Of a stretch of DNA of 64,000 bases, positions 10,596 through 63,125 are shown one piece after another (the stretch's first letter is position 1; each line of letters begins with the position of its first letter). A program made the position numbers and the translations under genes. This stretch comes from Methanobacteriota archaeon (GTDB lineage: Archaea; Thermoplasmatota; Thermoplasmata; Methanomassiliicoccales; UBA472), in the NCBI GenBank assembly GCA_021372315.1, contig JAJFUT010000073.1:29677-93676 (forward strand). Direction: 5' to 3'. Under the pieces are notes generated by a model. It was not told the DNA's origin and ran no database searches. It saw nothing but the letters and a program-made list of their open reading frames with translations.

Positions 10596-11116
10596 AGCAC
10601 CCTGAACGTCTCCATATATCGGTCCTCATTATTTAGTTATTGGTAGTGCCTTTTTCATCTGGCCATATCATCGCGATAAGCTCGAACGGAAAAAGGACGG
10701 GTTACAGATGCAAAGTTCCCTAATGATCAGAACGGAGGAGAAAGCAACTCGGGCGGGGCGCAAGGTGGAACATGTTTCTTTCGGAGGAGAATAGGGGAAT
10801 GAGCTCCAGACCCGAGTGCTATATTTCGAGTGATATGAGGTCATATATAAAAGGAAATTGATTCCAAAAATAATCAAATCGTAAATAGTTTGAACAATAT
10901 AATTTATATAATAATAGAAATGGATATGAACTAATAAAAAATATTTAATTCTAAAGACGATTCCAATAGAACATCAATTATCACAGCTTATATCTGGTAT
11001 ATTCTACACGACGCCTCAATACACAATACAATAAAATAGAACATTTCATTACATTTATTCCGATTCAGAGTTGCTATTTAGGAAAACACAGATAAATACG
11101 AAGGGGATACTCATAG

Positions 11117-17162: not shown

Positions 17163-18893
17163 CTAATTCTTCGCTTGTTCGGGGATGCGATAATTGCCCT
17201 TAGGCACGGTGATCCTGAACCTTGCGCCCTTGCCTGTCGAGCCATCCTCCACGATGTCCATCTGTCCGGTCTTAAGGATCTCCATGCAGAGGAAGAGCCC
17301 AAGGCCCGAATGGGCGCCTACCCCCTTCTCGAAAATGATCCTCTTGTCGTCATCGCGAATGCCGACGCCGTCGTCCTCGTAGATCACCTCGAGGTGATCG
17401 CCATTCTCCAGCGCTCTCAGGGATATCCTGCTCACATCCTTCCCGTGGGTGAGCGAGTTGTCCATCAGGTTGTAGAACACCTTCGAGAGCAATGGGTCAG
17501 CGAGCACCTCGTAACCTCTCGTGTCAGTGGTAAGATCGACCTTCTTTAGGTCCAGAAGCTGATCCATCGCCATGAAGGTCATGTCAAGGGATTGCCATGC
17601 TAGCCCATTGATCCCAAGCTCCTGATAGTCCTTTGCGAAGGATATCTGCCTGTCGATGTTCTGAACCGACCTAAGGCCCGAATCGATATGCCTGACCATG
17701 TCGGGGTCGGTCGTTCTCGAACGCATAAGACCCAGGCGCGCCTCCAATATGATGAGCTGGTTCCTGATGTCGTGCCTCGTGATGGTGTTCAGAAGGTCCA
17801 GCTTCAGATGCGTGGTCCTGGCATCCTCCTCAGCGTTCCATCGCGCGGTGACATCCCTCATGACGACCAGCTTCCCCATCCGAACGCCGGTATGGTCAGT
17901 GATCGCACTGATGTCCATCTCAAAACGCTCCTTTCCGATGCTTATCACCGGCATCTTCCTATCGCTCGATCCATCAGTTATGTCCAACATGTCCTTGGGG
18001 AGCATCGGCAGGACCTTTCTGACATCATCGCACAACGATGTCCGATCTCCGCAGCCAGGGAGGTGACTGGCCGTCCTGTTCATGAACAGGACGCGGTCGT
18101 TCTCGTCGAGGACGATCACACAGTCCTGCATGGTGTTGATCACACGGTCGTTCGCAAAAGGGACCATCTCGAAAAGTTCGAAGCTGAAGGCCCCTACGAA
18201 CAGTGGGATGCTTCCCGCAATGAGCCCGGTCATCACAATGATACCGCCGGGCATGTCCGTCCCCAGGGCGAAGTTTGCCACTATCGTCACGAGCGAAATG
18301 ATCGCCGAGAACGTAACGAGTCCGACGCCGGTCCTGCTTGGCCCCGTCGAATCCAGGTAGTGCCTGGCCATTATCAGGACGCTGTTGAGGACCATGATCA
18401 GGATGTAGGCACAGAAGATGTAGAAGAACGGGCCATACGAAGCATCGAACGAACGGAAGAAATTATCCGAGACCGAGGTGCTCGTGTAGAACAGCTCGTG
18501 ACGGTCGTTCGTCAGCAAGGCCGTCTCGATCAGGACCGCCGGCAGCGACAGGAGGGCCAATCTGCTCGGGGGGATGGCCTTGTTCCCGGTGAATAGGAGC
18601 GCGAAGATCATCAAGAAGATAGGCGCCGAGACATAGCCAGCGAACTCAACGCTGTTCCAGAGCAGCTTATCGCCGATGGTGGAGGAGGACGCACCGAGGT
18701 AGTACCCCCACGATATCAGCGTCTCTGAGATCATAAGGGCGATGAACGGATATCTGAACGAACGCCCGCTCCCGCTCCAGCTGAGATATGAAAGCGAGAT
18801 CGTTATGACCGACATGGTCAGAGCGACCAATGCCAGCAGCGTTATGCCCTCCATCGCAGGTTCAAGATACTTACTGTTATTAAAACCATCCAT
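17163..18893 (-). CDS. Sensor histidine kinase: 7TM N-terminal domain, PAS, HisKA, HATPase_c
   Basis: Seven hydrophobic helices, then a PAS-like segment. H-box TRHDIRNQL, N-box FYNLMDNSLTHG, G-boxes DDGVGI and GLGLFLCMEIL. The ORF extends to 18953; the start is likely 18893 or 18854. Confidence 0.9.
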   Translation of the reverse strand: MDGFNNSKYLEPAMEGITLLALVALTMSVITISLSYLSWSGSGRSFRYPFIALMISETLISWGYYLGASSSTIGDKLLWNSVEFAGYVSAPIFLMIFALLFTGNKAIPPSRLALLSLPAVLIETALLTNDRHELFYTSTSVSDNFFRSFDASYGPFFYIFCAYILIMVLNSVLIMARHYLDSTGPSRTGVGLVTFSAIISLVTIVANFALGTDMPGGIIVMTGLIAGSIPLFVGAFSFELFEMVPFANDRVINTMQDCVIVLDENDRVLFMNRTASHLPGCGDRTSLCDDVRKVLPMLPKDMLDITDGSSDRKMPVISIGKERFEMDISAITDHTGVRMGKLVVMRDVTARWNAEEDARTTHLKLDLLNTITRHDIRNQLIILEARLGLMRSRTTDPDMVRHIDSGLRSVQNIDRQISFAKDYQELGINGLAWQSLDMTFMAMDQLLDLKKVDLTTDTRGYEVLADPLLSKVFYNLMDNSLTHGKDVSRISLRALENGDHLEVIYEDDGVGIRDDDKRIIFEKGVGAHSGLGLFLCMEILKTGQMDIVEDGSTGKGARFRITVPKGNYRIPEQAKN

Positions 18894-19034
18894 TTCAAAA
18901 ATTAATGGAGAAGAACCATGAGCAGTGGAACTCGTACCTGCCCTTCGGAACATTGGTCCTGGAACGCGCCGTCAACGCCCAACTTGAAAAAAAAAGATGG
19001 AAATGGTTTGGCCGGCCATTGGGCCGATCGGCGT

Positions 19035-20534
19035 TCACTCGCCCCTCTTTCCAGTGAGCAACGACACGCCGATCATCGCCGCGAACCCCAGGGGCACGCT
19101 GACTATGCCCGGGTTCGTCAGCGGGAAGAGCGGGTCGTCCATGTACGTAGGGCTGACGGCGATGAGCACCAGCGCGCTCACGAGGCCGACGGCTATCCCC
19201 GATACGATGCCCCTGTCCGTGGCCTTCTTCCAGAAAAGCACTCCGATCAGGGCGGGTATGTTCGCGGAGGCTGCGAGGGCGAATGCCAGGCCGACGAGGA
19301 AGGCGACGTTCTGCCCCTTCATCACCATGCCCAGGGCGATCGCCAGCAGTCCGACGCCAACGGCCGTTATCTTCGACACCCTCAGGGCGGACTTGTCCGA
19401 CTTCTTCTTCCCGAGTATCTCGGTGTAGATGTCGTGCGCGATGGCCCCGGCCGATGCCATGATCAGCCCAGACACCGTCCCCAATATCGTGGCGAACGCT
19501 ATCGACGATATGAGCGCGAAGAACAGCTCCCCGCCTATGAAGTTGGCCAGCGTCGGCGCCGCGAGGTTGGAGTCCGTGACGATGAACTTACCCTGCCCCG
19601 CGAAGTAGTTCGTGCCAAGTCCCAGATACAGCATGAGGACGTAGAACACCCCCATCAGTACGATGGCTACCACCGTCGACTTCCTCGCATCCGAGGGCTT
19701 CGGTACGGTGTAGTACCTGATCAGGACGTGCGGCAGCGCCGCCGTTCCGAGCAGCAGCGCCAGGCACAGCGAGGCGAAGTCCCACGGGTCATTGAACTTA
19801 AGACCGGGCGATAGGAACGCGTCGCCTGTATGCGCCAGTCCTCCAGTCGCCGGATTGGCCGCTCCATTGTCTAGGAAGTTCTGTATGAACTCGAGCGGGC
19901 CGAACCCGGAGACAACAAGGACACCGATCGTCAGCGCTATGACGGCGATGAACAGCAGGAGCGCCTTGATGAACTGCACCCAGGTCGTGCTGACCATGCC
20001 GGCCGTGGCCACGATCAATATCACGATGCCACCGACTATCAGCACCCCCCATTCATAGGGGAAGCCGAGCAGAGGCTGAATGATCGTCCCTGCGCCCACC
20101 ATCTGCGGGATCAGGTAGAATATGCTCACGACGAGCGTGCTTATCGCAGCTGCCAGCCTCACGGACTTGCTCTTGAACTTCGAGACGAGGGCGTCGGCGA
20201 AGGTGTACTTGCCCATGACCCTCAGCGGTTCGGCTATCAAGAACAGCGCGACGATCCATCCGGCCAGGAAACCTATGCCGTAGATGAACCCGTCGAAACC
20301 GCTGAACGCGATCATTCCGGCTATGCCAAGGAACGACGCCGCGCTGAGGTAATCACCAGCGAACGCCACGCCGTTGACGAACCACTTCACGCTGCCTCCC
20401 GCGGTGTAATAATGACCTGCGGTACGCACCCTTCTCGAGAAATATGTCGAGATCGCAAGCGTGACCATCACGATGATGACGAACAGCGTGAAGGCCAATG
20501 GCTTGAAATCGTTGGCTAATGCTTCTGCAACCAT
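19035..20534 (-). CDS. actP: Cation/acetate symporter (SSF family, ActP-like)
   Basis: AGHYYTAGGSVKWFVNGVAFAGDYLSAASFLGIAGMIAFSGFDGFIYGIGFLAGW is the ActP N-terminal signature. About 13 TM segments. Confidence 0.85.
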   Translation of the reverse strand: MVAEALANDFKPLAFTLFVIIVMVTLAISTYFSRRVRTAGHYYTAGGSVKWFVNGVAFAGDYLSAASFLGIAGMIAFSGFDGFIYGIGFLAGWIVALFLIAEPLRVMGKYTFADALVSKFKSKSVRLAAAISTLVVSIFYLIPQMVGAGTIIQPLLGFPYEWGVLIVGGIVILIVATAGMVSTTWVQFIKALLLFIAVIALTIGVLVVSGFGPLEFIQNFLDNGAANPATGGLAHTGDAFLSPGLKFNDPWDFASLCLALLLGTAALPHVLIRYYTVPKPSDARKSTVVAIVLMGVFYVLMLYLGLGTNYFAGQGKFIVTDSNLAAPTLANFIGGELFFALISSIAFATILGTVSGLIMASAGAIAHDIYTEILGKKKSDKSALRVSKITAVGVGLLAIALGMVMKGQNVAFLVGLAFALAASANIPALIGVLFWKKATDRGIVSGIAVGLVSALVLIAVSPTYMDDPLFPLTNPGIVSVPLGFAAMIGVSLLTGKRGE

Positions 20535-20537
20535 GCT

Positions 20538-21263
20538 TCAAGCCTCCTGGGCCTTCTCCATCTTGATGGCATACCAGTTGAACACGACGGCCATGACTAT
20601 CGCAAGTATGATCGCTGCGAATCCCAAGACCAGTCCGACGTTGAGACCAAGCAGCCTCTCGGACATGACGCCTCTTTCAAAGGCGCCGAGGATCATGAGC
20701 AAAGCGTAGAATGCCACATATACGGCGAACAGGACGAGCCCGACCTTGAACTGCTTCGTGGAGGTGATCGACTCCACCGTCTTCGGCTTCTTCTTGCCGT
20801 CGATCCTACGCGCGAGCATCAAAGCCTCCCTCCCCTGCTCCTTGGTGGGGTTGATCGTGAGGACCTCGCATTTTGCGTGCTTAGCGACGCTCTTCGCGAC
20901 ATCTCCAAGATACAGTCCCGCCAGTCCGGACGGTGCGGAGCTGCCCATGACGATGGTCTGGACGCCCATCGCATTGGAGACGTTGATGATCTCGCCGGAC
21001 ACAGGTCCTTCCCGAACGACCTCGTCGTAGGGAACGCCCTCCTGCTTGGCAAGCTCCCGTGCGAAGGCCATTCCATCGATGTCGGGGCATCTCTTCAGGG
21101 TGACGTTCCCTGCCTGCTGCTCTATCTCGGTCGATGGCGTGGACTCGATGACGGTGAGGATGATCAGTTTTGCCTTCCTCTCCTTCGCCATCTTGACCGC
21201 TTCGATCGTCGCGACGAGCGCTGGCAACGAGCTGTCCGTCGGCAGCAGAATTTTCTGCTCCAT
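20538..21263 (-). CDS. Universal stress protein (USP) domain fused to a DUF485 (YjcH-like) two-TM domain
   Basis: N-terminus has ILLPTDSSLPA...LIILTVIES...TIVMGSSAPSGLAGLYLGDVAKSVAKHAKCEVL (USP). C-terminus has FKVGLVLFAVYVAFYALLMILGAFERGVM...LNVGLVLGFAAIILAIVMAVVFNWYAIKME (DUF485 pattern). Ends 3 nt before actP. Confidence 0.75.
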   Translation of the reverse strand: MEQKILLPTDSSLPALVATIEAVKMAKERKAKLIILTVIESTPSTEIEQQAGNVTLKRCPDIDGMAFARELAKQEGVPYDEVVREGPVSGEIINVSNAMGVQTIVMGSSAPSGLAGLYLGDVAKSVAKHAKCEVLTINPTKEQGREALMLARRIDGKKKPKTVESITSTKQFKVGLVLFAVYVAFYALLMILGAFERGVMSERLLGLNVGLVLGFAAIILAIVMAVVFNWYAIKMEKAQEA

Positions 21264-21500
21264 CAGATTCCCCCTCCTCCGTTCAGCGTCCTTTCGTCCG
21301 ATAGCATGGCAAGGTCCCGCTTCGTTCCTACGTCACCGTAGTTCCTCGGCGAAACCCCCCACCCTAAGAAGTTGCCTTTCGAGGCTTGAGGGGCTCCGGT
21401 GGGAGAGCGTCTCCTCCTTCTCCTGCCTGGATGGTCGAATGCATCCTGCATGGCAGGCGCTTACTCGATGGTCCTTACTTAAAACTATGCAAAATACACT

Positions 21501-21543
21501 ACGATACTTGTCGATTTACCTCATAATTTCAACGATAATCGTA
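21501..21543 (-). promoter_or_regulatory. Two copies of an ACGATA-N-T-N-GTCGA-like motif upstream of the USP-DUF485/actP operon, shared with the acs upstream region
   Basis: ACGATACTTGTCGA (21501-21514) and ATTTCAACGATAATCGT (21526-21542). A 14-nt exact match (ATTTCAACGATAAT) recurs at 62920-62933. Confidence 0.45.
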
Positions 21544-21700
21544 TTTTATGTGCGTTATACTGATAAAAAGTGAACATATGTCGGGGAATAACAACGTCGT
21601 ATGACGATACAACATAAAAAAAGAAGAGCTCCAAGGCCTGCGCTGGACGCAGATGCTCGATGAGGAAAAATGAACGACGGTCGAAGGAGCGGTTCGAGAC

Positions 21701-24937: not shown

Positions 24938-25483
24938 TCAAAAAACCTTGGCCCTCTTGCCAAGGAGCGAGGCATCGGGCTCGAACTCGTTGACCTCGTC
25001 CACCTTCGTCGGGTCCATGACCTGCAGCGGGGACAGGTCCTTCTCTTGACCGTCGACGCAGCTTCCCGAGTCCCACTTTATCGTGTTCATGTCCTTCTTG
25101 AAGAGCATGGTCTGCCCGTTCTTCCAGGTGACCAGGAGATTGATGACCCCGGCCTTGACCTCGAGATTGAGGTTCTTCATCACTGACGTGTAGGTCGCGG
25201 CCTTGCCCCTGCCGGACGTCCTGGAGGCGCCGCATTTCGTCATGAGGCCGATGTTCTCCATCTGATAGACGAGCTTGTAGCATGTGGCTATAGGTAGGTT
25301 CACTGCCGGTGATATGTCGCTCACCGTCATGCACCTCCTAGAGGTTATCCCAAGGATGAACATTGCCACAGGGTCGATGACGATGTGGGCGATCTCCTTG
25401 CGGTCCTGTTTGTTTAAAAGTTCTATCGATGAGAGGACAGCATACTCAGTCGTCCTACTCTCCCCTTCGTAAATACCCACCAA
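24938..25483 (-). CDS. Winged-helix (ArsR/TrmB-like) transcriptional regulator with a beta-rich C-terminal domain
   Basis: DPVAMFILGITSRRCMTVSDISPAVNLPIATCYKLVYQMENIGLMT resembles a wHTH recognition unit. Confidence 0.55.
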   Translation of the reverse strand: MVGIYEGESRTTEYAVLSSIELLNKQDRKEIAHIVIDPVAMFILGITSRRCMTVSDISPAVNLPIATCYKLVYQMENIGLMTKCGASRTSGRGKAATYTSVMKNLNLEVKAGVINLLVTWKNGQTMLFKKDMNTIKWDSGSCVDGQEKDLSPLQVMDPTKVDEVNEFEPDASLLGKRAKVF

Positions 25484-35715: not shown

Positions 35716-36020
35716 ACGCTTATTCCTCCGACCCTGTCATCACATCGGAAAAACCGATCGTCAGGATCGCAAGGTCCATCGACGAATGAAAAGAACACGA
35801 TACTATCTGGCGATAATCGTCGCTCATCTCGATCCCAACGAGTTGGAGATATTATCCAACTCCATACAAATAGGTATTGCATATGGGTCGGACCATACGA
35901 TCGGGTCATCTGAGAACGCGCCCTTTCATATGTTACTCATACCTGAGACGGCGATCATGGGGAGATATCATCTTTCGAAAGCCTTGGGATCATCGGCAGT
36001 TCGTACGAGGTGGATCCGGC

Positions 36021-48293: not shown

Positions 48294-48439
48294 CTCTTAC
48301 CCTCTGAGGTTATGGTAGACATCTTCCAGCTTTTAAATATTTTGCACGTATAATATAAATTGATAGTCGAAAAAAACAAAAATATTATTCCAGGATGCCT
48401 GAGCGTTCGGCATCCCGTGACATATCCTAAGGGCCCACT

Positions 48440-48775: not shown

Positions 48776-48831
48776 TTGTCCAATAGGTCAGGTTAATGAA
48801 CCTTGCTACCCATACGGGTATCGCTAGTTTC

Positions 48832-50697
48832 ATGACAGTGAGCGATTGGAGGAAGAGGTACAAGTCGAAGGTCTGCTCGCCCCAGGATGCGGTGCAGCAC
48901 ATCAGGCGAGGGGATACCATCTTCATCGCGACGGCATGCGGCGAGCCGCAGGCGCTCGTCAAGGCCATGGTCGCAGAGGCCGAGTCCCTTGCGGACAACG
49001 AGGTGATCCAGACCTTATCCATAGGTCCCAACACGTTCGCAGAGGAGAGGTTCGCGAGCCAGTTCCGTCTCAACGCTCTTTTCATAGGCCCGGGCACGAG
49101 GGAGGCCGTCAACCAGGGCAGGGCCGATTACACTCCGATATATCTTTCCGAGATCGAAAGGCTGTTCGAAACGGCCACCATCACCATCGAGGTGGCGTTG
49201 ATCCAGGTGTCACCACCGGACGAGGACGGCAACTGCTCGCTAGGCGTCAGCGTCGACATCACCAAGAGCGCCGCGGAGCACGCGGACATCGTCCTGGCGC
49301 AGGTGAACGAGAACATGCCTCGGACAAAGGGCGACTCGTTCATCCACGTCAACGAGATAGACCATCTGGTCGATCTGACGGAGCCTCTGCTCGAATGGGT
49401 ACCGGAAAGGGAGGAGGACCCGGAAGTATTGGCGCGCATAGGCAGGCATCTCTCCGAGCTCGTCCAGGACGGTTCGACGATCCAGATAGGTTACGGGACG
49501 ACGCCCGACGCGGTCCTCAAGCATCTGGGCAGCAGGAAGGACCTGGGCGTCCACACCGAAGTGTTCTCCGACGGGCTGATGGAGCTGGCGAAGGTCGGCG
49601 TCGTCACCGGTAGCAGAAAGACCGTGCATCCAGGAAAGATGATAGCCTCGTTCGTGATGGGGACGAAGGAGCTGTACGCCTGGGTTAACAACAACGACGC
49701 CATCGAGATGCATCCGTCATCCTACACGAACGATCCTTTCGTCATAGCGAAGAACGACGACATGGTGTCGATAAACACCGCCCTGTCGATCGACCTGACG
49801 GGGCAGGTCTGCGCCGATCAGATCGGCCACCGGTTCTTCTCAGGGCTCGGAGGTCAGGTGGATTTCATGCGCGGGGCCGCCCGCGCCAGGAACGGCAAAC
49901 CCATAATCGTGATGCCCTCGACCGCCAGGGATGGCATGGTATCGAGGATCGTTCCGCATCTGGAGGAGGGTGATAGCGTCACCACACCGCGCGGGGACGT
50001 GCACTACGTCGTCACCGAGTACGGCGTGGCCGAGCTCCACGGGAAGAGCATCATGCAGCGCACCCTCGCCCTGATCGAGATCGCGCACCCGAAGTTCAGG
50101 GACGAGCTGTTGGCGCACGCCAAATCGTTGCATCTCATATTCGCCGACCAGGCGGGGACCTCGATCAAGTCCATCTATCCAGAGCAGTACGAGATGGTCG
50201 CCCGGCTCAAGGACCTGGACGTCTATATAAGGCCGGCCAAGGCATCGGACGAGACCCTGCTGAGGGAGCTATTCTATTCGTTCAGCGACACGACGGTGTA
50301 CTCTCGATACATGGCGCCCCGCAAGTCCTTCTCGCACACGGAGCTGTCGAGCATCGTCGACATCGATTACGTCGAGCGCATGACGATGATCGCGCTGATC
50401 AAGGAGAGGGGGACATGGAAGGCCGTAGGCGTCTCGACGTTCGACATGGACCGTCCGTCGAACACGGCCGAGGTGTCGTTCATCGTCGCGGACAGGATGC
50501 AGGGGAAGGGCATCGGGACGAGGCTCATGGAACAGATGATAAAGGCCGGGAGGGACCGTTCGATCAAGGCGTTCACGGCCGAGACGCTCGCGGAGAACGT
50601 CAAGATGCTGGATATATTCTATAGGACGGGGTACAAGGTCGAGACGAAGCTCATCGAGGACACGTACATCGTCAAGATGGACCTGTGGCAGAAGTGA
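48832..50697 (+). CDS. Acetyl-CoA hydrolase/transferase-family domain fused to a Pat-type GNAT acetyltransferase domain
   Basis: N-terminal about 430 aa: SPQDAVQHIRRGDTIF, EVFSDGLMEL, FSGLGGQVDFMRGA, VVTEYGVAELHGKS (CoA-transferase family). C-terminal: YIRPAKASDETLLRELFYSFSDTTVYSRYM...VDIDYVERMTMIAL...AEVSFIVADRMQGKGIGTRLM (GNAT of the Pat/AcuA type). The ORF opens at 48796; the start is probably MTVSDW at 48832. Confidence 0.85.
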   Translation: MTVSDWRKRYKSKVCSPQDAVQHIRRGDTIFIATACGEPQALVKAMVAEAESLADNEVIQTLSIGPNTFAEERFASQFRLNALFIGPGTREAVNQGRADYTPIYLSEIERLFETATITIEVALIQVSPPDEDGNCSLGVSVDITKSAAEHADIVLAQVNENMPRTKGDSFIHVNEIDHLVDLTEPLLEWVPEREEDPEVLARIGRHLSELVQDGSTIQIGYGTTPDAVLKHLGSRKDLGVHTEVFSDGLMELAKVGVVTGSRKTVHPGKMIASFVMGTKELYAWVNNNDAIEMHPSSYTNDPFVIAKNDDMVSINTALSIDLTGQVCADQIGHRFFSGLGGQVDFMRGAARARNGKPIIVMPSTARDGMVSRIVPHLEEGDSVTTPRGDVHYVVTEYGVAELHGKSIMQRTLALIEIAHPKFRDELLAHAKSLHLIFADQAGTSIKSIYPEQYEMVARLKDLDVYIRPAKASDETLLRELFYSFSDTTVYSRYMAPRKSFSHTELSSIVDIDYVERMTMIALIKERGTWKAVGVSTFDMDRPSNTAEVSFIVADRMQGKGIGTRLMEQMIKAGRDRSIKAFTAETLAENVKMLDIFYRTGYKVETKLIEDTYIVKMDLWQK

Positions 50698-51402: not shown

Positions 51403-53082
51403 CTACATCATGAGGACGTTCAGGACGAGGTCCACGATGTAGCCGGACACGGCGCCGACCCAGATCAGCAGGACGAAGTGCACGCCTGTCGTGGCGATGC
51501 TTCCGCCCTTCACGATAGGGATCATGATCGCCGAGAAGAATGCATGGATGATGATTATGGAGAAGACCATGATGTTCAGCAGGTCGACGTTGTACGACGC
51601 GTTGAATATGCTGTCCAAGAACCCCCCTGTCGGAATACCGGACGTGTCGACGTTCAGGTTCGTGACCACGTTGTTCATGTACTCGATGATTCCGATCGTG
51701 ATCCAAAGCGTGAATGCCAGCGAGACCATTATACCATAGAACACGCCGTAGAAACCTGAGCTTATCGACAGCCTCTTCTTCCTTATCGTCAGGACCTTGA
51801 AGAGGTTGTTGCTGATGAACGAGCTCGTCTCCTCCGGCTTTGATCCGGAGAGGACGCATTCCATGTAGATGCTGCTGAACCTCTTGATGAGGTTGCTGCT
51901 CGACTCGGCAGCGAAGTGCTCCCAGGACTTCCGGGGGTCGATGTACATGTTCAGCCTCTTCGACAGGTTCTCGACCATGCTCGTGAGCGGCCCGAACTTG
52001 TGCACGGCCAGGTTCTTCACCGCACCGGGCATCGTCTGCCCGCTGACGGACGACGAACGCCCGAGGGACCTGATGAACGCGCCGAATATCTCATCCCTCT
52101 TCTCGATCCTCTTCTCCTCCCTCATCATCAGTATGCCGGGGATGAGGACTGGCATGAATATCGAAGCGGCCATGAGCATAGGCGGGAGGTCGAAGTCCTT
52201 CAGCGTGATGAACAAGAGGAAAATACCGGCTATGGCCACGAACAGCGACAATATCAGGATGCGGTCCTTGTCGGATACGAGCCTCCCCTTTATCTTCTGC
52301 CTGAAGGGGTACCAGATGTCCTCCTTCGGGACCTTCGACAATATGAGGACGACGAAAAGGGCCTCCATGATGACGAACCCCACCACGACGCCAATCATGA
52401 GCTCGTCGACCATAGTCTGGCTCAGCAACGGTATGATGGCCACGAAGACGCAGATGAAGATGAGCGCGGTGACCGCGCCGGTGTATATCTCCTTCAGGAA
52501 ATCGACGTCCTTGAGCGAGGACTCGCATCGAAGGACGTACTCGTCCATCAGCACGTCGTGCTCGTTGTTCATGAAACGGTCGAGCGGCTCGCCCACGTCG
52601 ATGGCGTGGCTCAGTCTCGAGAAGAAGTCGTTCTCGAGCTTGCTCGGCGATTGCGAGGCGACGAAGGCGCATCCGACCGACACGGAGACGTTGTATAGCT
52701 TCATGAGCCGGTAGATCTTCTCGGAGTCCTTGGACAGTGGTCCGTACTCCTTCTTCTGGGACAGGATGTGGAATATCCTCTCGAAGCCCATGTCCGAAGT
52801 GGCCAGGGCTGCGAGCTCGGTGATGTACGAAGGCATGGTCCTGTCGATCTTGATCCTCCTCTGCGACGCCGAGACATAAGGCCATATGACGACGACCATG
52901 ACAAGGAAGTAGAATGACGCGAAGACGGCGAACAGGCTCGTCACTTCCATATATGGCCCGATGGAAAACCATGTGAGCGCCGGGAACGCGATCCCGAAGA
53001 TGCCGATCGTCAGTCCGAGAAGGGTGAGATACTTCTTCCGGTCCATCTCCATCGTGCTGAGGGCGAGCCGATACTTCATCAT
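51403..53082 (-). CDS. flaJ: Archaellum polytopic membrane platform protein FlaJ/ArlJ
   Basis: 559-aa membrane protein with two TadC/GspF-like halves, immediately downstream of flaI. Confidence 0.9.
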   Translation of the reverse strand: MMKYRLALSTMEMDRKKYLTLLGLTIGIFGIAFPALTWFSIGPYMEVTSLFAVFASFYFLVMVVVIWPYVSASQRRIKIDRTMPSYITELAALATSDMGFERIFHILSQKKEYGPLSKDSEKIYRLMKLYNVSVSVGCAFVASQSPSKLENDFFSRLSHAIDVGEPLDRFMNNEHDVLMDEYVLRCESSLKDVDFLKEIYTGAVTALIFICVFVAIIPLLSQTMVDELMIGVVVGFVIMEALFVVLILSKVPKEDIWYPFRQKIKGRLVSDKDRILILSLFVAIAGIFLLFITLKDFDLPPMLMAASIFMPVLIPGILMMREEKRIEKRDEIFGAFIRSLGRSSSVSGQTMPGAVKNLAVHKFGPLTSMVENLSKRLNMYIDPRKSWEHFAAESSSNLIKRFSSIYMECVLSGSKPEETSSFISNNLFKVLTIRKKRLSISSGFYGVFYGIMVSLAFTLWITIGIIEYMNNVVTNLNVDTSGIPTGGFLDSIFNASYNVDLLNIMVFSIIIIHAFFSAIMIPIVKGGSIATTGVHFVLLIWVGAVSGYIVDLVLNVLMM

Positions 53083-53091
53083 CTTCTTCCC

Positions 53092-54768
53092 TCAGTAGCT
53101 GAAGGGCAGCGAGGACGGCCCCTTCTCGTAATAATCGTTGAAGACCTTGACGACGTCGCGGTATGACGTGATGTCCAGCTCGACCATCCTCTCTATGATC
53201 CTCTGCCTAGTCCTCAGGTCGTTGTAGATGTCCTTCTTCTCAGCGTATCCGTGCTCGACGGCGATCTTGTTCTCGAGGATATGCGAGTTGTTCAGCCCGC
53301 GGAATATGTGCTTGTCCTTGTTGGCGTCCCACTTGAAGACGACCCGGGTCAGGATGCCACCCTGGTCCCTGTTGTAGCCGACGAACTCCTCCACGTGGGT
53401 TACCCGCCTGAGGACGAGGCCGTTGACGTTCACGGCCGACTGGAATATGATGACGTTGACGTTGTCTATGAAAGAAAGAGGGATGTTGACAGGCTGCCCG
53501 GTCATCCTCTGGATGAACTTCGTCGAGGTGGACGCGTGGAACGTCGCAATGACCGGGATGCCTGTCTGCATGCACTGAAACGCGACACGCGCCTCCTCTC
53601 CACGGATCTCGCCTATGACGATATAATCGGGCCTCGAACGCAGGGCAGCCCTGAGCAGGTCGAACATCGTGACCCTCGCCTCCTCCGGTCCAGATTCCCT
53701 CGTGACGCAGCGCTGCCACGAACGCTGGGGCGGCTTGACCTCCGGTGTGTCCTCCACGGAGTATATCTTGCCCCTGTGGTCGACGAAGGTGAGAACGCCG
53801 TTGAGCGTGGACGTCTTACCGGAGGCGGTCTCCCCGCAGATCATGATGTTGACCTTGTTCTCAAGGCATAGCCAAAGATAGGCTCCCAGTTCCGGGGAGA
53901 ACGTCCCCCACTTGATCAGCTGGATCGGCGATATCGGCTCGGCCGAGAACTTACGGATCGTGAACGAGCTTCCCCTGGCGGAGATCTCGTTCGAATAGAT
54001 CATGTTGATACGGGAGCCGTCGGGCAATATCCCGTCGACGATCGGCTTGGAAGCGGACACGGGCCTGCCCATCCTCTCCGACATCGAGACGAAGAACTCG
54101 TTCAGGGAGGCGTCATCGTCGAACTTGATGTTCGTCTCGAGAGCGTACTGGAACGCCTTGTGCGATACCCTCACGCTCGTCGTTCCGACGAGGTGTATGT
54201 CCTCGATGTACTGGTCGAGGATGAGGGGCTGTATCGTCCCGAACCCAATGATGTCCCTGTTGACGAAGTACCTGAAGAGCTCGTACTCGTCCTTCGCGAC
54301 CGTAACCTTGTCCCCTGCTCCGATGAGCCGGGCCATGGGGGATTTCCTGAGGAAGTTCTCGTCATCGTCGGGGTTTCCCACCTTGACGATGCGGTCGAAT
54401 AGCTTGTTGAGCAGGCGCTCCTTCTCCTCGTAGGACTCCTTGGCGTCGACGTTGGACGCGCGGCTCAATATGCCCCACTTGATGGCCTGGAGCTTGATCT
54501 TCTCGACCTGCGTGAGCTTCTTTTCGATGCTGTTGTACTTATTGATCTTCGCGTCGATGTGGATGAAGCCCGAGCCGGCCGTGTAGATGAAATTGCAGGA
54601 GTCCGGGTCTCTCGCGGCCTCCTTCCTGATTACCGCCAGCTCCTTGATCGTGAGGTTCTTATAGAACTTCGGGAGCGTGGTCGTGCCCTTCGAGAGCTCC
54701 TCTAGGTACTGTCTGAGGACCGGGTTCGTCTCGGCCTGCTTGAGGAGCTCGTCTTCCATTTCCCGCAC
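53092..54768 (-). CDS. flaI: Archaellum assembly/motor ATPase FlaI/ArlI
   Basis: Type II/IV secretion NTPase motifs: ICGETASGKTSTLN (Walker A), IVIGEIRGEEA (Walker B region), His box ATFHAS. Confidence 0.95.
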   Translation of the reverse strand: MREMEDELLKQAETNPVLRQYLEELSKGTTTLPKFYKNLTIKELAVIRKEAARDPDSCNFIYTAGSGFIHIDAKINKYNSIEKKLTQVEKIKLQAIKWGILSRASNVDAKESYEEKERLLNKLFDRIVKVGNPDDDENFLRKSPMARLIGAGDKVTVAKDEYELFRYFVNRDIIGFGTIQPLILDQYIEDIHLVGTTSVRVSHKAFQYALETNIKFDDDASLNEFFVSMSERMGRPVSASKPIVDGILPDGSRINMIYSNEISARGSSFTIRKFSAEPISPIQLIKWGTFSPELGAYLWLCLENKVNIMICGETASGKTSTLNGVLTFVDHRGKIYSVEDTPEVKPPQRSWQRCVTRESGPEEARVTMFDLLRAALRSRPDYIVIGEIRGEEARVAFQCMQTGIPVIATFHASTSTKFIQRMTGQPVNIPLSFIDNVNVIIFQSAVNVNGLVLRRVTHVEEFVGYNRDQGGILTRVVFKWDANKDKHIFRGLNNSHILENKIAVEHGYAEKKDIYNDLRTRQRIIERMVELDITSYRDVVKVFNDYYEKGPSSLPFSY

Positions 54769-54809
54769 CTTCTCCTGCCTGCTTTGTTGCCTTGATCCCT
54801 ATCTCACGC

Positions 54810-55523
54810 TCATCCCGATAGGTCGGTGATCTCGATGACCATGCCCGACTTCGGTTCTATCCTGTACTTCATCTGGTCCTCGACCTGTCCCCTCGCTCGG
54901 AGGAAGCGTTTGACATGTATCTCCCTGGAGACCCCTCCCTTCGTGTTCATGACGAGGTCGAGGTAGACATCGGCCGACAGCCTGAGCGGGTCCAGGTTGG
55001 GTAGCCCGGCCTCCGACGTCAGCACGACGGTCTTGTCCATCCTCGTCAGCTTCTTCAGGAACCCCATGAGCGAGTTCGCGTGCTCGTAGTCCATGTTCTT
55101 GTTGAGCAACGATGAGAACGAATCGACGATGAGCACGTCCCTGACGAAGAGCTGGGGGGAGTTGACGAGCTTGACGAGGAAATCGTCCCGCGTCCTGGTC
55201 TGGCCAAGGAGCGGGTAGACCGGCACGTAGAGCAGCTTGTCGCTGAGCAGGTGCGGACCGATCTGGTAATTGATGGAGTACATCTGGTCGATGAAGTCCT
55301 TGAACGTCATCTCGGTCGACACGTACGTCACGCTGACGCCGTTGCTCAGGAAGCCGTAGCATAAACGCTGGCTCAGTATGCTCCTTCCGGAGCCTTCGGG
55401 GCCTTCGATGAAGACGACGGACCCTTTCGGTATCCCCTTTCCCAGCCTGACGTCCAGCTCGTCGGTCTTAAGGCCGAACCTGTAGACCCCGTCATCCCCA
55501 TTGCCCTTCTGGTCCTGTACCAT
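54810..55523 (-). CDS. flaH: Archaellum KaiC-like protein FlaH/ArlH (P-loop reads GPEGSGRS)
   Basis: LDVRLGKGIPKGSVVFIEGPEGSGRSILSQRL, sitting in the flaG-flaH-flaI position. Confidence 0.85.
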   Translation of the reverse strand: MVQDQKGNGDDGVYRFGLKTDELDVRLGKGIPKGSVVFIEGPEGSGRSILSQRLCYGFLSNGVSVTYVSTEMTFKDFIDQMYSINYQIGPHLLSDKLLYVPVYPLLGQTRTRDDFLVKLVNSPQLFVRDVLIVDSFSSLLNKNMDYEHANSLMGFLKKLTRMDKTVVLTSEAGLPNLDPLRLSADVYLDLVMNTKGGVSREIHVKRFLRARGQVEDQMKYRIEPKSGMVIEITDLSG

Positions 55524-55547
55524 CTTCCCATCGTCCTTTCTAAATCC

Positions 55548-55991
55548 TCAGACCCGGAACAGGAACGTGTCCGATCTGCCGCTGCCAGTTATGACCTTGA
55601 TCGTGTGGTCCCCTTCGTCGATGTCTGCGCCGACCGTGAGCACCAGTATGGTCGATGGACCCCATTCTTTCGAGCTGGAGCCGTCCAGGCGGGCCGCCGT
55701 CTCATTATTGTAGACCCCGTCGAGCATGACCATGACGTCGTAGGTGCCCATCACCGATGTCCCGATGTTCTCGACGTAGATCGTCAGTTCGCCATCGGAG
55801 TACGGCATCATCGTCGGGTCGTTGATGATCACGATGTCCGTGGCTATGCTATCTCCGAGCGCATCGGCCTGGTCCTCGATCTTCTCCCCCATCTGGAACC
55901 CGACGCCGATGATGACGCCGGCCAGCGAGGCCGCGACCACAATCGCCGCAATGAAGAAGACCGTCTGCGATATCGCGGCATCGGATGCCAT
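55548..55991 (-). CDS. flaG: Archaellum stator-associated protein FlaG/ArlG
   Basis: MASDAAISQTVFFIAAIVVAASLAGVI is an archaellin-like N-terminal helix. The ATG overlaps the flaF stop (TGATG). Confidence 0.8.
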   Translation of the reverse strand: MASDAAISQTVFFIAAIVVAASLAGVIIGVGFQMGEKIEDQADALGDSIATDIVIINDPTMMPYSDGELTIYVENIGTSVMGTYDVMVMLDGVYNNETAARLDGSSSKEWGPSTILVLTVGADIDEGDHTIKVITGSGRSDTFLFRV

Positions 55992-56422
55992 CAGATCGCC
56001 TCGGCCTGAACATGGTCGGACGCCCAACCGTAGGCCGTCACCTTGACCCTTGCGTTCTCGATCTCACCGGGCAATTCTATGATGATCGATTCGCCCGGCG
56101 CCCAGATGTTGCTTCCAGGATGTCCTTCCACTGTTATCCGTAGCATGGTCCAGTTGCACAGCGTGCCGTTGACGAGCACATCAACGTCCTGTAACGTTAT
56201 CGTCTCCCCCCCATCGTTCCTTACGAGCAAGGAGTCGTTAAGACCGTCGACCGAAACGATGGAGATGGACGTTCCCCTGATCTCCTCGTTCCTGGCGACG
56301 CTCTCGTCCTGCGCGTCCGCGACCTTTTCTTCGAGATCGGTCATGGCCCCGAAAACGATGCTGAACGTTATGACGGCGGCCGTGAACAATATGGCCGTCG
56401 CCGCGGAGACGCTGAGGCCCAT
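55991..56422 (-). CDS. flaF: Archaellum stator-associated protein FlaF/ArlF
   Basis: MGLSVSAATAILFTAAVITFSIVFG N-terminal helix followed by a beta-sandwich-like remainder. Operon position fits. Confidence 0.8.
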   Translation of the reverse strand: MGLSVSAATAILFTAAVITFSIVFGAMTDLEEKVADAQDESVARNEEIRGTSISIVSVDGLNDSLLVRNDGGETITLQDVDVLVNGTLCNWTMLRITVEGHPGSNIWAPGESIIIELPGEIENARVKVTAYGWASDHVQAEAI

Positions 56423-56424
56423 CC

Positions 56425-57171
56425 TTACCTCACTTCCAGGCGCCTCAGTTCTGCCAGCCAGTGGTCCAGTTCGTCGTAGTCCTCCTCGGTGAGGCGGCTG
56501 CCGTTCATCTTATCCATATATATCCTGTTCATGTGATATTCCACGATCTTGTGGACCTGGGTGAAGCAGTAATTGTCCGTCTTATAGGAAGGTGCTGGTG
56601 CGGCAGGCTCGTTCGAAAGGCCGGGGGGCGTGGATTCCCTGAACTGCTGCCTTTGCTCGGGAACGGCGCCTTCATGTCTTCCGTTCGGCATCTTCATGTC
56701 GGTCCTCGGCCTTTCGAAGGGATCGAACTCCGGCGCCCTCGATCTGACCTGGTTCAAAGGCATAGCTTCGAAGCTGTCCTGAGGCCTCATGATATAGTCG
56801 TCTGGCTGGTCGTCCGAGTTCTTCTTCATCGGGATCGACATCTGCTCCATGTCGTTGTTCCTGAACGAGTTCTCGACGAACGGATTGTACTGGCGACTCA
56901 CCATCTCGTAGACCTGAAGGAGCGCCTTCATCGATTCGTTTATCGAGCCCAGGTCGTTCTTCATCGAGTCGATGTCCCCTTTGAGGGACTTTCCCTGCAT
57001 CTGGAGCCCGTCTACCTGTCCCTTAAGATCGGTCACGGTCGCGTTCACGACCTTGATCCTCTCATCGTCCTTTGGCAGCGCCTGGACGTTCACATCGAAG
57101 GCCTGGTCGCCAGGTCGTCTCGCGAGAACGTCCTTCTGGTCGAGGGACGGCAATTTGGCTAGATCATCCAT
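56425..57171 (-). CDS. Archaellum accessory protein of the FlaC/D/E (ArlCDE) family
   Basis: Coiled-coil segment followed by ALLQVYEMVSRQYNPFVE (FlaC/D/E motif). GAGGA SD before the ATG at 57171; the ORF extends to 57246. Confidence 0.7.
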   Translation of the reverse strand: MDDLAKLPSLDQKDVLARRPGDQAFDVNVQALPKDDERIKVVNATVTDLKGQVDGLQMQGKSLKGDIDSMKNDLGSINESMKALLQVYEMVSRQYNPFVENSFRNNDMEQMSIPMKKNSDDQPDDYIMRPQDSFEAMPLNQVRSRAPEFDPFERPRTDMKMPNGRHEGAVPEQRQQFRESTPPGLSNEPAAPAPSYKTDNYCFTQVHKIVEYHMNRIYMDKMNGSRLTEEDYDELDHWLAELRRLEVR

Positions 57172-57324
57172 GGATTCCTCGTTATCCTTCTTCTTCCTGA
57201 ACGATATGACGGCTAGAAATGGAAGAAAGAAGGGCAGAGGGCACATTCGCCTGTTTTTCGCGCTATCACACTCCTCTGTCCGGTTAATTAAAGGGTTTAA
57301 GAGGTTTGGCAGTGTCTTTCGAGC

Positions 57325-57915
57325 TTATGCCAGATCGACCATTGCGGTTGTGAAGACCTCAGGCGTGTAGAACGTCACCAATGTTGCCTGTCCATAGGCG
57401 GGGGTGATCGTTATCTGGACGTACTGAGAGTTCTCAACATCGTTGGTGAGCTCGTTCAGATCGATCGAGATCTTGATCATGTCGCCCTGCCCGACCATCT
57501 TGACGGCGTCTGCGGTCCAGTCAGCTCCGGAGACCGCGACAACCTGTCCAGCGGTGTACAGCGGGGATGTGCCTGTGTTGTTGTAGAGCAGGTTCTGGTT
57601 CCCATCGTTGACAGAGATCAGGACGTTCTCCATGTTGATGGATGGACTTCCGGACTGGAGCCTCAGGTAAACATCGACGCTCGTCAGGGTGCCGTCAGTG
57701 ACGCTGGCGGTCCCGACCACGTCGTAGCAGATGAATCCGGTAGCTACGTTGTCAATTGCCTGGGATCCGGTATCCTGTGCCTGTTCCCTGACATCGTTCG
57801 CGGTGCTGATCAATACCGACGCGGCGACGGCTGCTACGAGGACCATCGCGATAAAGATGATCATCGTTCCGACGCCCATTTCGGCGCGCTTATCCAACTT
57901 CCTTTTCATCATCAT
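57325..57915 (-). CDS. flaB: Archaellin (flagellin) FlaB/ArlB with a class III signal peptide
   Basis: MMMKRKLDKRAEMG/VGTMIIFIAMVLVAAVAASVLI is the canonical pre-archaellin N-terminus. The ORF extends to 57981. Confidence 0.9.
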   Translation of the reverse strand: MMMKRKLDKRAEMGVGTMIIFIAMVLVAAVAASVLISTANDVREQAQDTGSQAIDNVATGFICYDVVGTASVTDGTLTSVDVYLRLQSGSPSINMENVLISVNDGNQNLLYNNTGTSPLYTAGQVVAVSGADWTADAVKMVGQGDMIKISIDLNELTNDVENSQYVQITITPAYGQATLVTFYTPEVFTTAMVDLA

Positions 57916-58247
57916 ATTCTTCCCTTCTGATATGGTCGGAGCCTGCGCTGATCGACAGTGCGAAGGACCCGACCCATCCAATCTCCTTCGAGGCGATCAG
58001 GCGGCATTGAAATATGTTCTGGCCAGCCGCAAAGTTGGAGATGATGATGTAAATATAATTGTCATATTTAAATTTAATCAGACAAATATACAAAAAATAT
58101 TAACATAATCCAAGAATTTCATCATAATATATACATTATGTCAATGAATATATCTAATATGCAAGTATATTATTCATATACTTTCATAACGATATACATA
58201 TGATTATATTAATAAAATTAATAATATTATTAACGTTTGTAATTTTA
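57916..58247 (-). promoter_or_regulatory. Very AT-rich archaellum operon upstream region
   Basis: About 230 bp of almost pure A/T (58040-58250) with many TATA-like elements between the PAS gene stop and flaB. Confidence 0.5.
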
Positions 58248-60805: not shown

Positions 60806-62782
60806 TCACTTGTTCCGGATCTTCTTGTGGTCCGCCACAAGCTTGTCGACGACGGTCGGGTCGGCGAGCGTCGTGACGTCCCCAAGTTCCTCCTCCTGGT
60901 CGGATGCGATCTTCCTGAGGATGCGCCTCATGATCTTCCCGCTGCGGGTCTTCGGCAGGCCAGGGGCGAACTGGATGACGTCCGGGACCGCGATCGGACC
61001 GACGCTCTTCCTTACGTGCAGGACGAGGTCCTTCAGCAGTTCCGGCGACTCCGGCACTCCGGTCTTGAGAGTGACGTAGGCGTAGATCGCCTCTCCCTTG
61101 ATCTCGTGAGGCATCGGAACGACCGCAGCCTCGGCGACCTTCGGGTGCGCCACCAGGGCCGATTCGACCTCCGCCGCGCCTATCCTGTGACCGCTGACCT
61201 TGATGACGTCGTCGACGCGGCCCATGATCCAGACGTACCCGTCCTTGTCATGCCTGGCGCTGTCGCCAGTAAAGTAAACGCCGTGGAAGCGGCTCCAGTA
61301 CGTCTCGATGAACCTGTCGTGCTGACCCCAGACGGTCCTCATGATTCCGGGCCAGGGCTTCTTGATGACCAGATATCCTCCCTCGTTGACGCCCGCGGGC
61401 TTGCCGTCCTCCTTGAGGATCGCAGGCTCGATGCCGAAGAACGGCATGGTCGCGGAACCGGGCTTGGTGGTCGTGGCGCCGGGCAGAGGTGTGATCATTA
61501 TGCCTCCGGTCTCGGTCTGCCACCACGTATCGACGATCGGGCACCTTTCATGCCCTATGTTCTTGTGGTACCACATCCAGGCCTCTGGGTTGATAGGCTC
61601 TCCGACGGAGCCCAGCAGCCTCAGCGAGGACAGGTCTCTCCTGTTCGGCCACGCCTCGCCCTCCCTCATGAGGGAGCGTATCGCTGTCGGGGCCGTGTAG
61701 AATATGTTGACGCCGAACTTCTCGATGATCTGCCAGAAGCGGTCATGTTCGGGGTACGTCGGTATCCCTTCGAACACGACCTGAGTGGCGCCGGCCGACA
61801 TCGGTCCGTACAGGATGTACGAATGACCCGTGATCCATCCGCAGTCGGCTGTGCACCAGTAGACATCGTCGTCGTGGTAATCGAAGATGTACTTGAACGT
61901 CCTGTTGACATAGACCATGTAACCGCCGGTGGTATGGACGACCCCCTTCGGTTTTCCGGTGGACCCGGACGTGTATAGGATGAACAGCGGGTCCTCCGCA
62001 TCCATCCATTCAGGCTCGCAGACATGGGAGGCCTTGCTCGTCTCCTCGTGGAGCCAGAAGTCCCTTCCCTCGGTCATGACGACCTCGTTTCCGCCCCTCT
62101 TGACGACGAGCACGCTGCTGATGTCCGTCCCCTTCTCGAGCGCGGCGTCCGCGTTGGATTTCAAGGAGATGAGCTTGCCTCCTCGGCGGTTGCCGTCAGC
62201 GGTGATCAATACCTTGCATTGGCTGTCGTTGATCCTGTCGCGGAGCGAGTCGGCGCTGAATCCGCCGAACACGACGCTGTGGACCGCGCCTATCCTGGCG
62301 CATGCGAGCATGCTGAACATGAGCTCCGGGATCATCGGCAGGTAGATCGAGACGCGGTCCCCCTTGGCCACGCCCTTGCTCTTGAGGACGTTGGCGATCT
62401 TTGAGACCTCATACAACACCTGCTGGTAGGTGAACGTCTTGACCTCGTCGTCGTTCTCTCCCTGCCAGATGATGGCCGCCTTGTTCTTGTACGGACCGAG
62501 CGCGTAACGGTCGACACAGTTGTAACAGGCGTTGAGCTTTCCACCTTCGTACCACTTGATCCTCGCCTCGTCCACGTTCCAGCTGAAGACATTGTTCCAC
62601 TTGGCGAACCAGTGCAAGCAGTCAGCGTTCTTTTCCCAGAATGCGACGGGGTCCTTGATCGATTCCGCGTACATCTTTTCATATTCCGCCATGGACTTGA
62701 TGTGCGCGTGCTCTCTGAACTCCTTCGTCGGTTCGAACCTTCTGTCCTCCTCCATCACTGACTCTATCGTTTTTTCGCTCAT
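60806..62782 (-). CDS. acs: Acetyl-CoA synthetase (AMP-forming)
   Basis: [19 protein letters not shown] (AMP-binding motif), WWQTETGG, and a C-terminal [18 protein letters not shown] (A10 motif carrying the regulatory/catalytic Lys). Confidence 0.95.
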
Positions 62783-62919
62783 CCGAACAATTCCTCCGGT
62801 GACTTTTCATCCGATCTAGCTTGATAAGAAGTTTGATAGATGCCCTTAAAAGCCGGTTCGGTTTTTAAGAGTTTCGAAAAGCGAATCAATAAAACAACTG
62901 TAATTATATCTTTCGTATT

Positions 62920-62939
62920 ATTTCAACGATAATTGTCGA
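62920..62939 (-). promoter_or_regulatory. Imperfect palindrome TTTCAACGAT-A-ATTGTCGAAA in the acs / MIP divergent promoter, sharing a 14-mer with the actP-operon upstream region
   Basis: ATTTCAACGATAAT (62920-62933) is identical to 21526-21539. ACGATAATTGTCGA (62926-62939) matches 21501-21514 at 13 of 14 positions. Confidence 0.45.
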
Positions 62940-63125
62940 AATTTTACGAATTATGTAGATTATTTCCGAAAAAAAGTATTTGCCGATGTGGAAATCCGTT
63001 AGGTGTCGTTGCCAACACGTCCGTCATCGAAATATCGCATTTCCCCTGCGAGGCGACTTTAATATTTAATTTTTACTTTAAATTTTAATAGATGCAATAA
63101 ACTGACCCGCCCAAATAGGGATGAA

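Follow-up and report, generated by a model that had tools for sequence, protein, structure and literature searches.

On the evidence of sequence comparison, the two acetate-assimilation promoters carried by a 64-kb stretch of Methanomassiliicoccales DNA (the window), one of them upstream of acs and the other upstream of an operon of a small ORF, a USP-DUF485 fusion gene and actP, have in common a cis-regulatory module that is real, conserved and specific to them. The conserved unit of this module is, judging from orthologous promoters, a box of about 20 bp with the form AaaTCG[A/T]CAAnTATCGT. It is represented upstream of acs by positions 62923-62942 and upstream of the actP operon by 21498-21517, a segment that the original prediction had listed as a mere relative of the element it described. 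With moderate confidence, the module is read here as the target of one transcription factor of Lrp type, which would co-regulate acs together with the small ORF/USP-DUF485/actP operon.

Methanomassiliicoccales are methanogens of gut and wetland. They are thought to be reliant on an outside supply of acetate or other organics as a source of cell carbon, and their use of acetate has been inferred from genomes (PMC7824343). A search of the literature found nothing on the regulation of acetate uptake in this order.

Gene context and the shared 14-mer

The window has a G+C content of about 58%, with AT-rich spacers. The acs gene (60806..62782, minus strand) encodes an AMP-forming acetyl-CoA synthetase of 658 aa with the Pfam domains ACAS_N, AMP-binding and AMP-binding_C, which shares 71-84% identity with Acs proteins from Methanomassiliicoccales MAGs. 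On the same strand, the gene for a 241-aa USP-DUF485 fusion (20538..21263; Pfam Usp 1.1e-22, DUF485 1.6e-9) precedes that for a 499-aa ActP-like sodium:solute symporter (19035..20534; Pfam SSF 7.5e-86), and the synteny of these two genes is kept in every relative examined. A histidine kinase gene (17163..18953, minus strand), with Pfam domains HisKA_7TM and HATPase_c, begins 81 nt 3' of actP and is possibly co-transcribed with it. The membership of this kinase in the module is uncertain: its synteny is found only in the closest relatives (loci L144 and L146), no such gene lies 3' of actP in L147-L152, and the window holds no response regulator near it. HisKA_7TM kinases do recur beside USP-domain genes, 3' of actP in the window, L144 and L146, and beside an HTH_20 regulator gene and a Usp gene in the genome PtaU1.Bin124 (L153:5317-8238).

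Elsewhere in the window lie an archaellum operon, flaB to flaJ (51403-57981), a gene of the MvhD/FlpD type and two AT-rich islands devoid of long ORFs (10800-11050 and 58020-58250; G+C 0.32-0.40), the second of which sits between the archaellin gene and the gene of a PAS-domain protein. A fusion of acetyl-CoA hydrolase/transferase and GNAT domains is encoded at 48796-50697 on the plus strand. Related CoA-transferase-GNAT fusion genes are convergent with acs in four other loci (L008:5212-7077, L004:5341-7206, L012:5672-7543 and L039:5992-7803), and the fusion is plausibly tied to acetate metabolism by a route other than a shared box, this neighbourhood suggesting a functional link to Acs, for example through acetylation control or CoA transfer.

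The starting point of the analysis was an exact 14-mer, ATTTCAACGATAAT, which had been claimed at 21526-21539 and 62920-62933 of the plus strand. Both copies are exact and they are the only two in the window, where no third match appears even with two mismatches allowed. The relative that had been described next to it, ACGATACTTGTCGA (21501-21514), is identical at 13 of 14 positions to ACGATAATTGTCGA (62926-62939), as predicted, and the statement that the two 14-mers share one orientation relative to their genes is equally correct: both regions lie 5' of minus-strand genes, with ATTATCGTTGAAAT as the gene-sense reading. The predicted distances are right when measured to the start codons of USP-DUF485 and acs, but the actP operon begins earlier, at a small ORF of 62 codons.

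When the 31 intergenic regions of the window were compared in all 465 pairs and in both orientations, the acs and actP spacers formed the sole pair with a common word of at least 13 nt, and a 12-mer was common to four intergenic pairs. A common word of at least 14 nt was obtained in 0.16% of 5000 dinucleotide shuffles of the two AT-rich cores. Shuffling of the whole window, with up to two mismatches accepted, produced at least two matches in 5 of 100 shuffles. By itself the 14-mer is thus only moderately improbable as a product of chance, and it is suggestive rather than decisive evidence. What is decisive for a shared element, as far as can be read from the DNA, is conservation across orthologous promoters. 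In the acs promoter the 14-mer itself takes in the right half of the proximal box and adjoining flank, and in the actP promoter (21526-21539) the right half of the distal box plus a GAAAT flank. The prediction of a cis-element that is common to both promoters, and specific to them, is sustained, but its core unit is the related copy at 21501-21514 and not the exact 14-mer.

Conservation, specificity and fixed geometry of the boxes

Both strands of the 64 kb were scanned with a matrix that drew its acs boxes from other genomes and excluded the window; the two promoters took ranks 1 and 2 (acs 62923-62942, 23.8 bits; actP 21498-21517, 21.8 bits), and the next match, at 16.0 bits, falls inside coding sequence. 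A matrix made from acs boxes only scores 18.7-21.7 bits in the actP promoter of each of the 8 genomes, with the match invariably at -65/-66 relative to the first ATG, and one made from actP boxes only scores 15.4-22.4 bits in the acs promoters of 10 genomes. Spacers in general do not carry the motif: within the window, the remaining 29 intergenic regions peak at 8.4 bits with the acs-only matrix and 6.8 bits with the actP-only matrix, against about 22 bits at both promoters. In some 240 kb of DNA from relatives, no comparably strong match was seen outside acs and actP promoters. Of the two outcomes that the original prediction had named as counting against it, scattered copies and a lack of conservation, neither turned up in the DNA covered.

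Orthologous promoters retain the motif 5' of acs in 11 genomes and 5' of the actP operon in 8, with its distance to the predicted TATA box fixed. The box ends 15 nt 5' of the TATA in 8 of 8 actP-operon promoters and 15 or 16 nt 5' of it in the 11 acs promoters. Flanking sequence diverges around the boxes, which are kept in these 19 promoters while the encoded proteins are 53-84% identical. In a more distant clade (the metagenomic relatives L081-L091, and L152; USP 45-48% identical) the promoter and the small ORF are kept and the boxes are reduced to their right halves, TCGTA or TCGCA, and the acs promoter of L012 has only degenerate boxes, which are positioned elsewhere. A search for the palindrome ACRATNATYGT with one mismatch was uninformative, with 9 matches vs 6.7 expected.

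A third site, which had been proposed as a weaker relative at 48365-48380 near the CoA-transferase-GNAT locus, did not survive. It is absent from the matrix matches and no box is present in the orthologous CoA-transferase-GNAT promoters, so it was dropped from the motif set. A further candidate, to which the palindrome search had pointed, lies within ACGATACTATCTGGCGATAATCGTC (35797-35821, plus strand), between a divergent gene for a cobyrinate a,c-diamide synthase-like protein and a class-III aminotransferase (HemL-like) gene. Its GGCGA-TAA-TCGTC (35809-35821) has the FFRP form, and it was rejected as off-geometry, at 26 nt rather than 15 from the nearest TATA-like sequence, and as low-scoring with the acs and actP matrices.

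In the actP promoter, the proximal box is GACAAGTATCGTA in gene sense (21500..21512, minus strand), assigned from its matrix match and its conservation. It is contained in a 20-bp core, AAATCGACAAGTATCGTAGT (21498-21517, minus strand), which is the local form of the AaaTCG[A/T]CAAnTATCGT unit. The proximal sequence (A)TCGACAAaTATCGTAG is kept 15 nt from the TATA in L144 and L146-L151 (USP 53-79% identical), and in 8 genomes the proximal box is found at -65/-66 from the ATG of the small ORF; in the window, measured to this ATG, the 13-bp proximal box starts 61 nt upstream, the 20-mer core 66 nt and the distal box 92 nt. The distal box, TACGATTATCGTT (21531..21543, minus strand), is a 5-3-5 palindrome of the Lrp/FFRP type. 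In the window, L144, L146, L147, L148, L149 and L151, TACGAwwwTCGTn occurs exactly 31 bp (counted from TCGT to TCGT) 5' of the proximal box, and the spacer between the two boxes varies among these seven genomes. Forms of the distal box include TACGA-TTA-TCGTT in the window, TACGA-ATA-TCGTG in L148 and, upstream of acs, TACGA-TTT-TCGTA in L011, and in L149 it is a perfect palindrome, TACGATATTCGTA (TACGA-TAT-TCGTA).

Downstream of these boxes, conservation points to TTTTAAGTA (21476..21484, minus strand) as the TATA box of the actP operon, with a weak hexamer, GCATAG, at the predicted BRE position (21485-21490, minus strand). TTTAAGTA is kept in 7 of the 8 actP promoters, and the variant in L150 is ATTAAATA. 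In all 8 genomes, 15 nt separate the proximal box from the start of the predicted TATA, and 23-24 nt separate the end of this TATA from the ATG of the small ORF, the sequence between TATA and ATG being unconserved. This spacing is read as that of a promoter for a leaderless or near-leaderless mRNA, from which the small ORF would probably be translated with no leader or a very short one. The small ORF, recognised by its conserved frame as the first cistron of the operon, encodes 62 aa (MQDAFDHPGRRRRRRS...; 21263..21451, minus strand). Although identity is low, 13 genomes keep this frame open over 48-66 codons. The stop codon of the small ORF and the start of USP-DUF485 overlap to within about 4 nt, and the encoded product has an Arg-rich N-terminus, M(Q/R)D..HPxRRRRR, and no match in Pfam. 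Because the reading frame is kept in those 13 genomes, the 190-nt G+C-rich stretch 5' of USP-DUF485 was rejected as a structured leader. Further upstream, a CGTC-N4-GACG palindrome lies 5' of the distal box (21592-21610, minus strand) and takes the form ACGTC-AAAA-GACGT in L147 and L149. A TATA-like sequence, TTTTTATC, is present in several genomes about 18 nt 5' of the distal box (about 21561-21569, minus strand in the window) and may be a second promoter of the actP operon.

The acs promoter has a proximal box, GACAATTATCGTT (62925..62937, minus strand), likewise assigned from matrix match and conservation, in a 20-bp core, ATTTCGACAATTATCGTTGA (62923-62942, minus strand). This box forms the centre of a 21-bp palindrome, TTTCGACAAT-T-ATCGTTGAAA (62921-62941), and AaaTCG[A/T]CAAyTATCGT is kept 5' of acs in L001-L008, L010 and L039. 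The predicted BRE, CGAAAG (62910-62915), and predicted TATA, ATATAATTA (62901-62909), follow on the minus strand, and CGAAAGnTTTAATTA, which combines the BRE-like CGAAA with the TATA, is kept in the 11 acs promoters 15 nt (in some 16 nt) after the box. A weak second box, TACATAATTCGTA (62945..62957, minus strand), matches TACGAWWWTCGTA with two mismatches. Its centre lies 20 bp, or two helical turns, 5' of that of the proximal box, and it falls within an imperfect inverted repeat of about 53 bp with 26-nt arms and its centre at 62931. This exact copy is not conserved, and the distal-type boxes of relatives stand at other phased distances: the actP-distal matrix finds palindromes 51 bp 5' of the acs proximal box in L005-L008 and L039, and the acs promoter of L011 has the distal-type palindrome TACGATTTTCGTA. 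Near the predicted transcription start of acs, GCGCTTTTCGAAACTCTTAAAAA (about 62860-62885, minus strand) is present in the window and L001-L003 and missing from L004-L008, and may represent either a second BRE/TATA (CGAAA plus CTCTTAAAAA) or a second operator.

The boxes sit 3' of the oligo-T tract that trails the preceding gene and 5' of the predicted TATA, and are therefore probably outside the transcript. An RNA element was rejected on this position and because Rfam finds nothing in the window. The idea that only a core promoter (BRE/TATA) had been detected was also set aside, the boxes being separate from, and 5' of, the conserved TATA/BRE and absent from the other 29 intergenic regions.

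Site form, proposed mechanism and alternative readings

The distal boxes have the 13-bp form abcdeWWWedcba, with 5-bp inverted halves around a centre of three A/T pairs. In the proximal box, GACAA-WWW-TCGT(A/T), the TATA-proximal half is perfect and the other half is off at position d in every orthologue, and an additional conserved TCG lies 5' of the box, beyond the 13-bp form. Thermoplasma and Methanomassiliicoccales both belong to the Thermoplasmata. For TvFL3 of Thermoplasma volcanium, the SELEX optimum is TACGA[AAT/ATT]TCGTA (PMC2715240), to which the distal consensus TACGAWWWTCGTA is equal at 13 of 13 positions. The same source includes Ptr2, LysM and FL10 in a group of xxCGA-WWW-TCGxx sites, and lists as preferences GGACGA[WWW]TCGTCC (half-site GACGA) for Ptr2, TACGC for Ptr1 and TTCGA for LysM and FL10 (PMC2715240).

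Spacing agrees with the FFRP form as well, since the boxes are phased at 31 bp in seven actP promoters, at 20 bp in the acs promoter of the window and at 51 bp in five acs promoters of relatives (L005-L008 and L039), and the proximal box, 15 or 16 nt 5' of the predicted TATA, is placed just upstream of the predicted BRE. The archaeal activators Ptr2, LysM and Ss-LrpB use a position-constrained dimer site just 5' of the BRE with auxiliary sites 2-3 helical turns further 5', and activate through recruitment of TBP (PMC2995911). The match in box form, position near the BRE and phasing to these three systems favours an Lrp-type upstream activating module. The common operator of the original prediction is retained as one shared element, but its geometry is that of an upstream activating site 5' of BRE/TATA and not of a repressor operator.

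From these features we infer the regulator family, the activating sign and the nature of the signal as follows. The proximal 13-bp box, ending 15 nt 5' of the predicted TATA, stops about 9 nt 5' of the BRE position; the actP distal palindrome lies three helical turns (31 bp) further 5', and the weak acs box of the window two turns 5'. A dimeric or octameric regulator of the Lrp/AsnC family (FFRP) could then bind the phased boxes along a single side of the helix. Those of its subunits that sit on the half-site next to the TATA (the perfect TCGTA half) would help to recruit TBP and TFB, so that acs and the actP operon would be activated jointly by a metabolic signal. The acetate response proposed in the original prediction is not carried over into this reading; the known effectors of Lrp/FFRP proteins tend to be amino acids or other small metabolic compounds. 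The off-palindrome left half, GACAA, together with the extra TCG, implies that recognition may differ from that of a canonical FFRP dimer. No Lrp/AsnC gene was found in the 64-kb window or in the roughly 240 kb of relatives' loci by tblastn with E. coli Lrp and P. furiosus LrpA or by Pfam, scans of the window ORFs with Pfam gave no clear DNA-binding protein, and no FFRP from Thermoplasmata was recognisable in the PDB.

It is conceivable, although we regard it as unlikely, that the boxes are bound by a factor outside the Lrp family, either an HTH_20/ArsR-like winged-helix protein of about 120 aa or a 181-aa, weakly HTH-like protein encoded at 24938-25483. An HTH_20 gene for a 120-aa protein (L005:2038-2400) stands directly 5' of acs in L004-L008 and L039, with proteins 99-100% identical among these six species-level genomes, and in L012 (79%), and members of the family are at least 70% identical throughout Methanomassiliicoccales. 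In PtaU1.Bin124 the HTH_20 gene adjoins a Usp gene and a HisKA_7TM hybrid kinase gene, which are domain types of the actP operon. The window gene at 24938-25483 (minus strand), about 3.5 kb 5' of the actP operon, encodes a distant homologue of the HTH_20 protein (25% identity, E 2.5e-4) with sub-threshold matches to TrmB and IclR HTH domains. However, the neighbourhood of HTH_20 genes is inconsistently linked to acetate, with polysaccharide genes around it in another MAG, and the 3 kb around acs contain no HTH_20 gene in L001-L003 or the window. The HTH_20 gene's own loci lack the box, and L012 possesses the gene, yet its acs promoter boxes are degenerate and displaced. A protein of this kind would also leave the 13/13 match of the distal box to a known FFRP optimum unexplained. 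Genes of the HTH_10 type are found close to actP in L150 and L152 alone.

A second doubtful alternative accepts the Lrp-type binding and reverses or doubles its sign: an oligomer would spread or wrap over BRE/TATA and shut both promoters when the signal is present, in the manner of lysine-bound FL11 or of Ss-LrpB at high concentration. Depending on their oligomeric state, archaeal Lrp proteins can indeed repress or have a dual role (PMC2995911). The acs box centres an imperfect palindrome of about 53 bp whose downstream arm, TACGAAAG, overlaps the BRE, and if TTTTTATC were a second promoter, the actP distal box would, on a reading of the sequences, lie at its start site. However, the best-conserved contacts stop 15 nt before the TATA and do not overlap BRE, TATA or start, unlike classical archaeal repressor sites; the CGAAA at the BRE position of acs is what is expected of a BRE, and it is missing from the actP promoters. 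A strict position of the box relative to the TATA is, moreover, a hallmark of activators (PMC2995911).

A chance likeness of AT-rich DNA, a generic core-promoter feature or the remnant of a duplicated or mobile segment, in each case without a specific role, would accord with the merely moderate improbability of the 14-mer (the 5 in 100 whole-window shuffles) and with the 12-mers common to four other intergenic pairs, but is highly improbable, since the phylogenetic footprint, with boxes kept in 19 orthologous promoters while flanks diverge, contradicts chance, no other intergenic region of the window exceeds 8.4 bits, and the likeness between the acs and actP promoters is limited to boxes and TATA spacing, which argues against recent duplication.

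The Lrp-type reading yields a precise and testable prediction that covers the two promoters, with boxes specified to the level of the conserved CG dinucleotides, activation and the regulator family. For a TACGA half-site, the recognition residues expected from the Yokoyama code would be Ser34-Glu35-Gly36-Thr37-Arg39. The candidate regulators in any complete genome are thereby narrowed to a few Lrp paralogues, and the box is a ready binding probe.

Comparison with known systems

Acs and an acetate permease operon were not found described in the literature as targets of an archaeal Lrp protein, nor was an archaeal regulator or motif for acs/actP. The closest counterparts in regulatory design are Ptr2 at the rb2 and fdxA promoters of Methanocaldococcus jannaschii and LysM and Ss-LrpB of Sulfolobus. 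These systems are alike in their 13-bp boxes with a CGA-WWW-TCG core, in the constrained box near the BRE with auxiliary boxes 2-3 turns 5' and in their targets, which belong to transport and central metabolism. They differ in that the proximal box of acs and actP is asymmetric (GACAA vs TACGA) and carries the extra upstream TCG, and in that the regulator here is a predicted one. With TvFL3 the distal-box consensus is identical, as exemplified by TACGATATTCGTA in L149 and TACGATTTTCGTA in L011, which is a likeness of the binding site. A known archaeal regulatory design would in this way be extended to a new regulon, which is useful rather than surprising.

A bolder proposal, offered only tentatively, is that an Lrp-type activator senses carbon status (acetate, acetyl-CoA or a derived amino acid) and governs a dedicated acetate-assimilation regulon in these methyl-reducing methanogens. 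Under such a regulator, acs would be expressed along with an operon of an architecture not described before, which encodes a leaderless, Arg-rich 62-aa protein, USP-DUF485, ActP and, in some genomes, the HisKA_7TM kinase.

In bacteria, CrbS/CrbR (MxtR/ErdR) consists of a sensor kinase with a solute-symporter domain and its cognate DNA-binding response regulator. One bacterial regulator of this system places acetyl-CoA synthetase and the DUF485-ActP acetate permease under joint control (PMC8402216), a logic like that of the present module, in which acs is coupled with a DUF485-ActP permease unit. The parts differ: CrbS/CrbR combines bacterial promoters with a kinase and response regulator, whereas the promoters here are of the archaeal BRE/TATA type and the kinase adjoining actP has an N-terminus of the HisKA_7TM type. 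The module was not assigned to the CrbS/CrbR system, given a HisKA_7TM plus HATPase_c kinase, an archaeal host and neither a response regulator nor a bacterial-type promoter in the window. If the proposal of a dedicated regulon is true, it would be an archaeal functional counterpart of CrbS/CrbR, built from unrelated parts.
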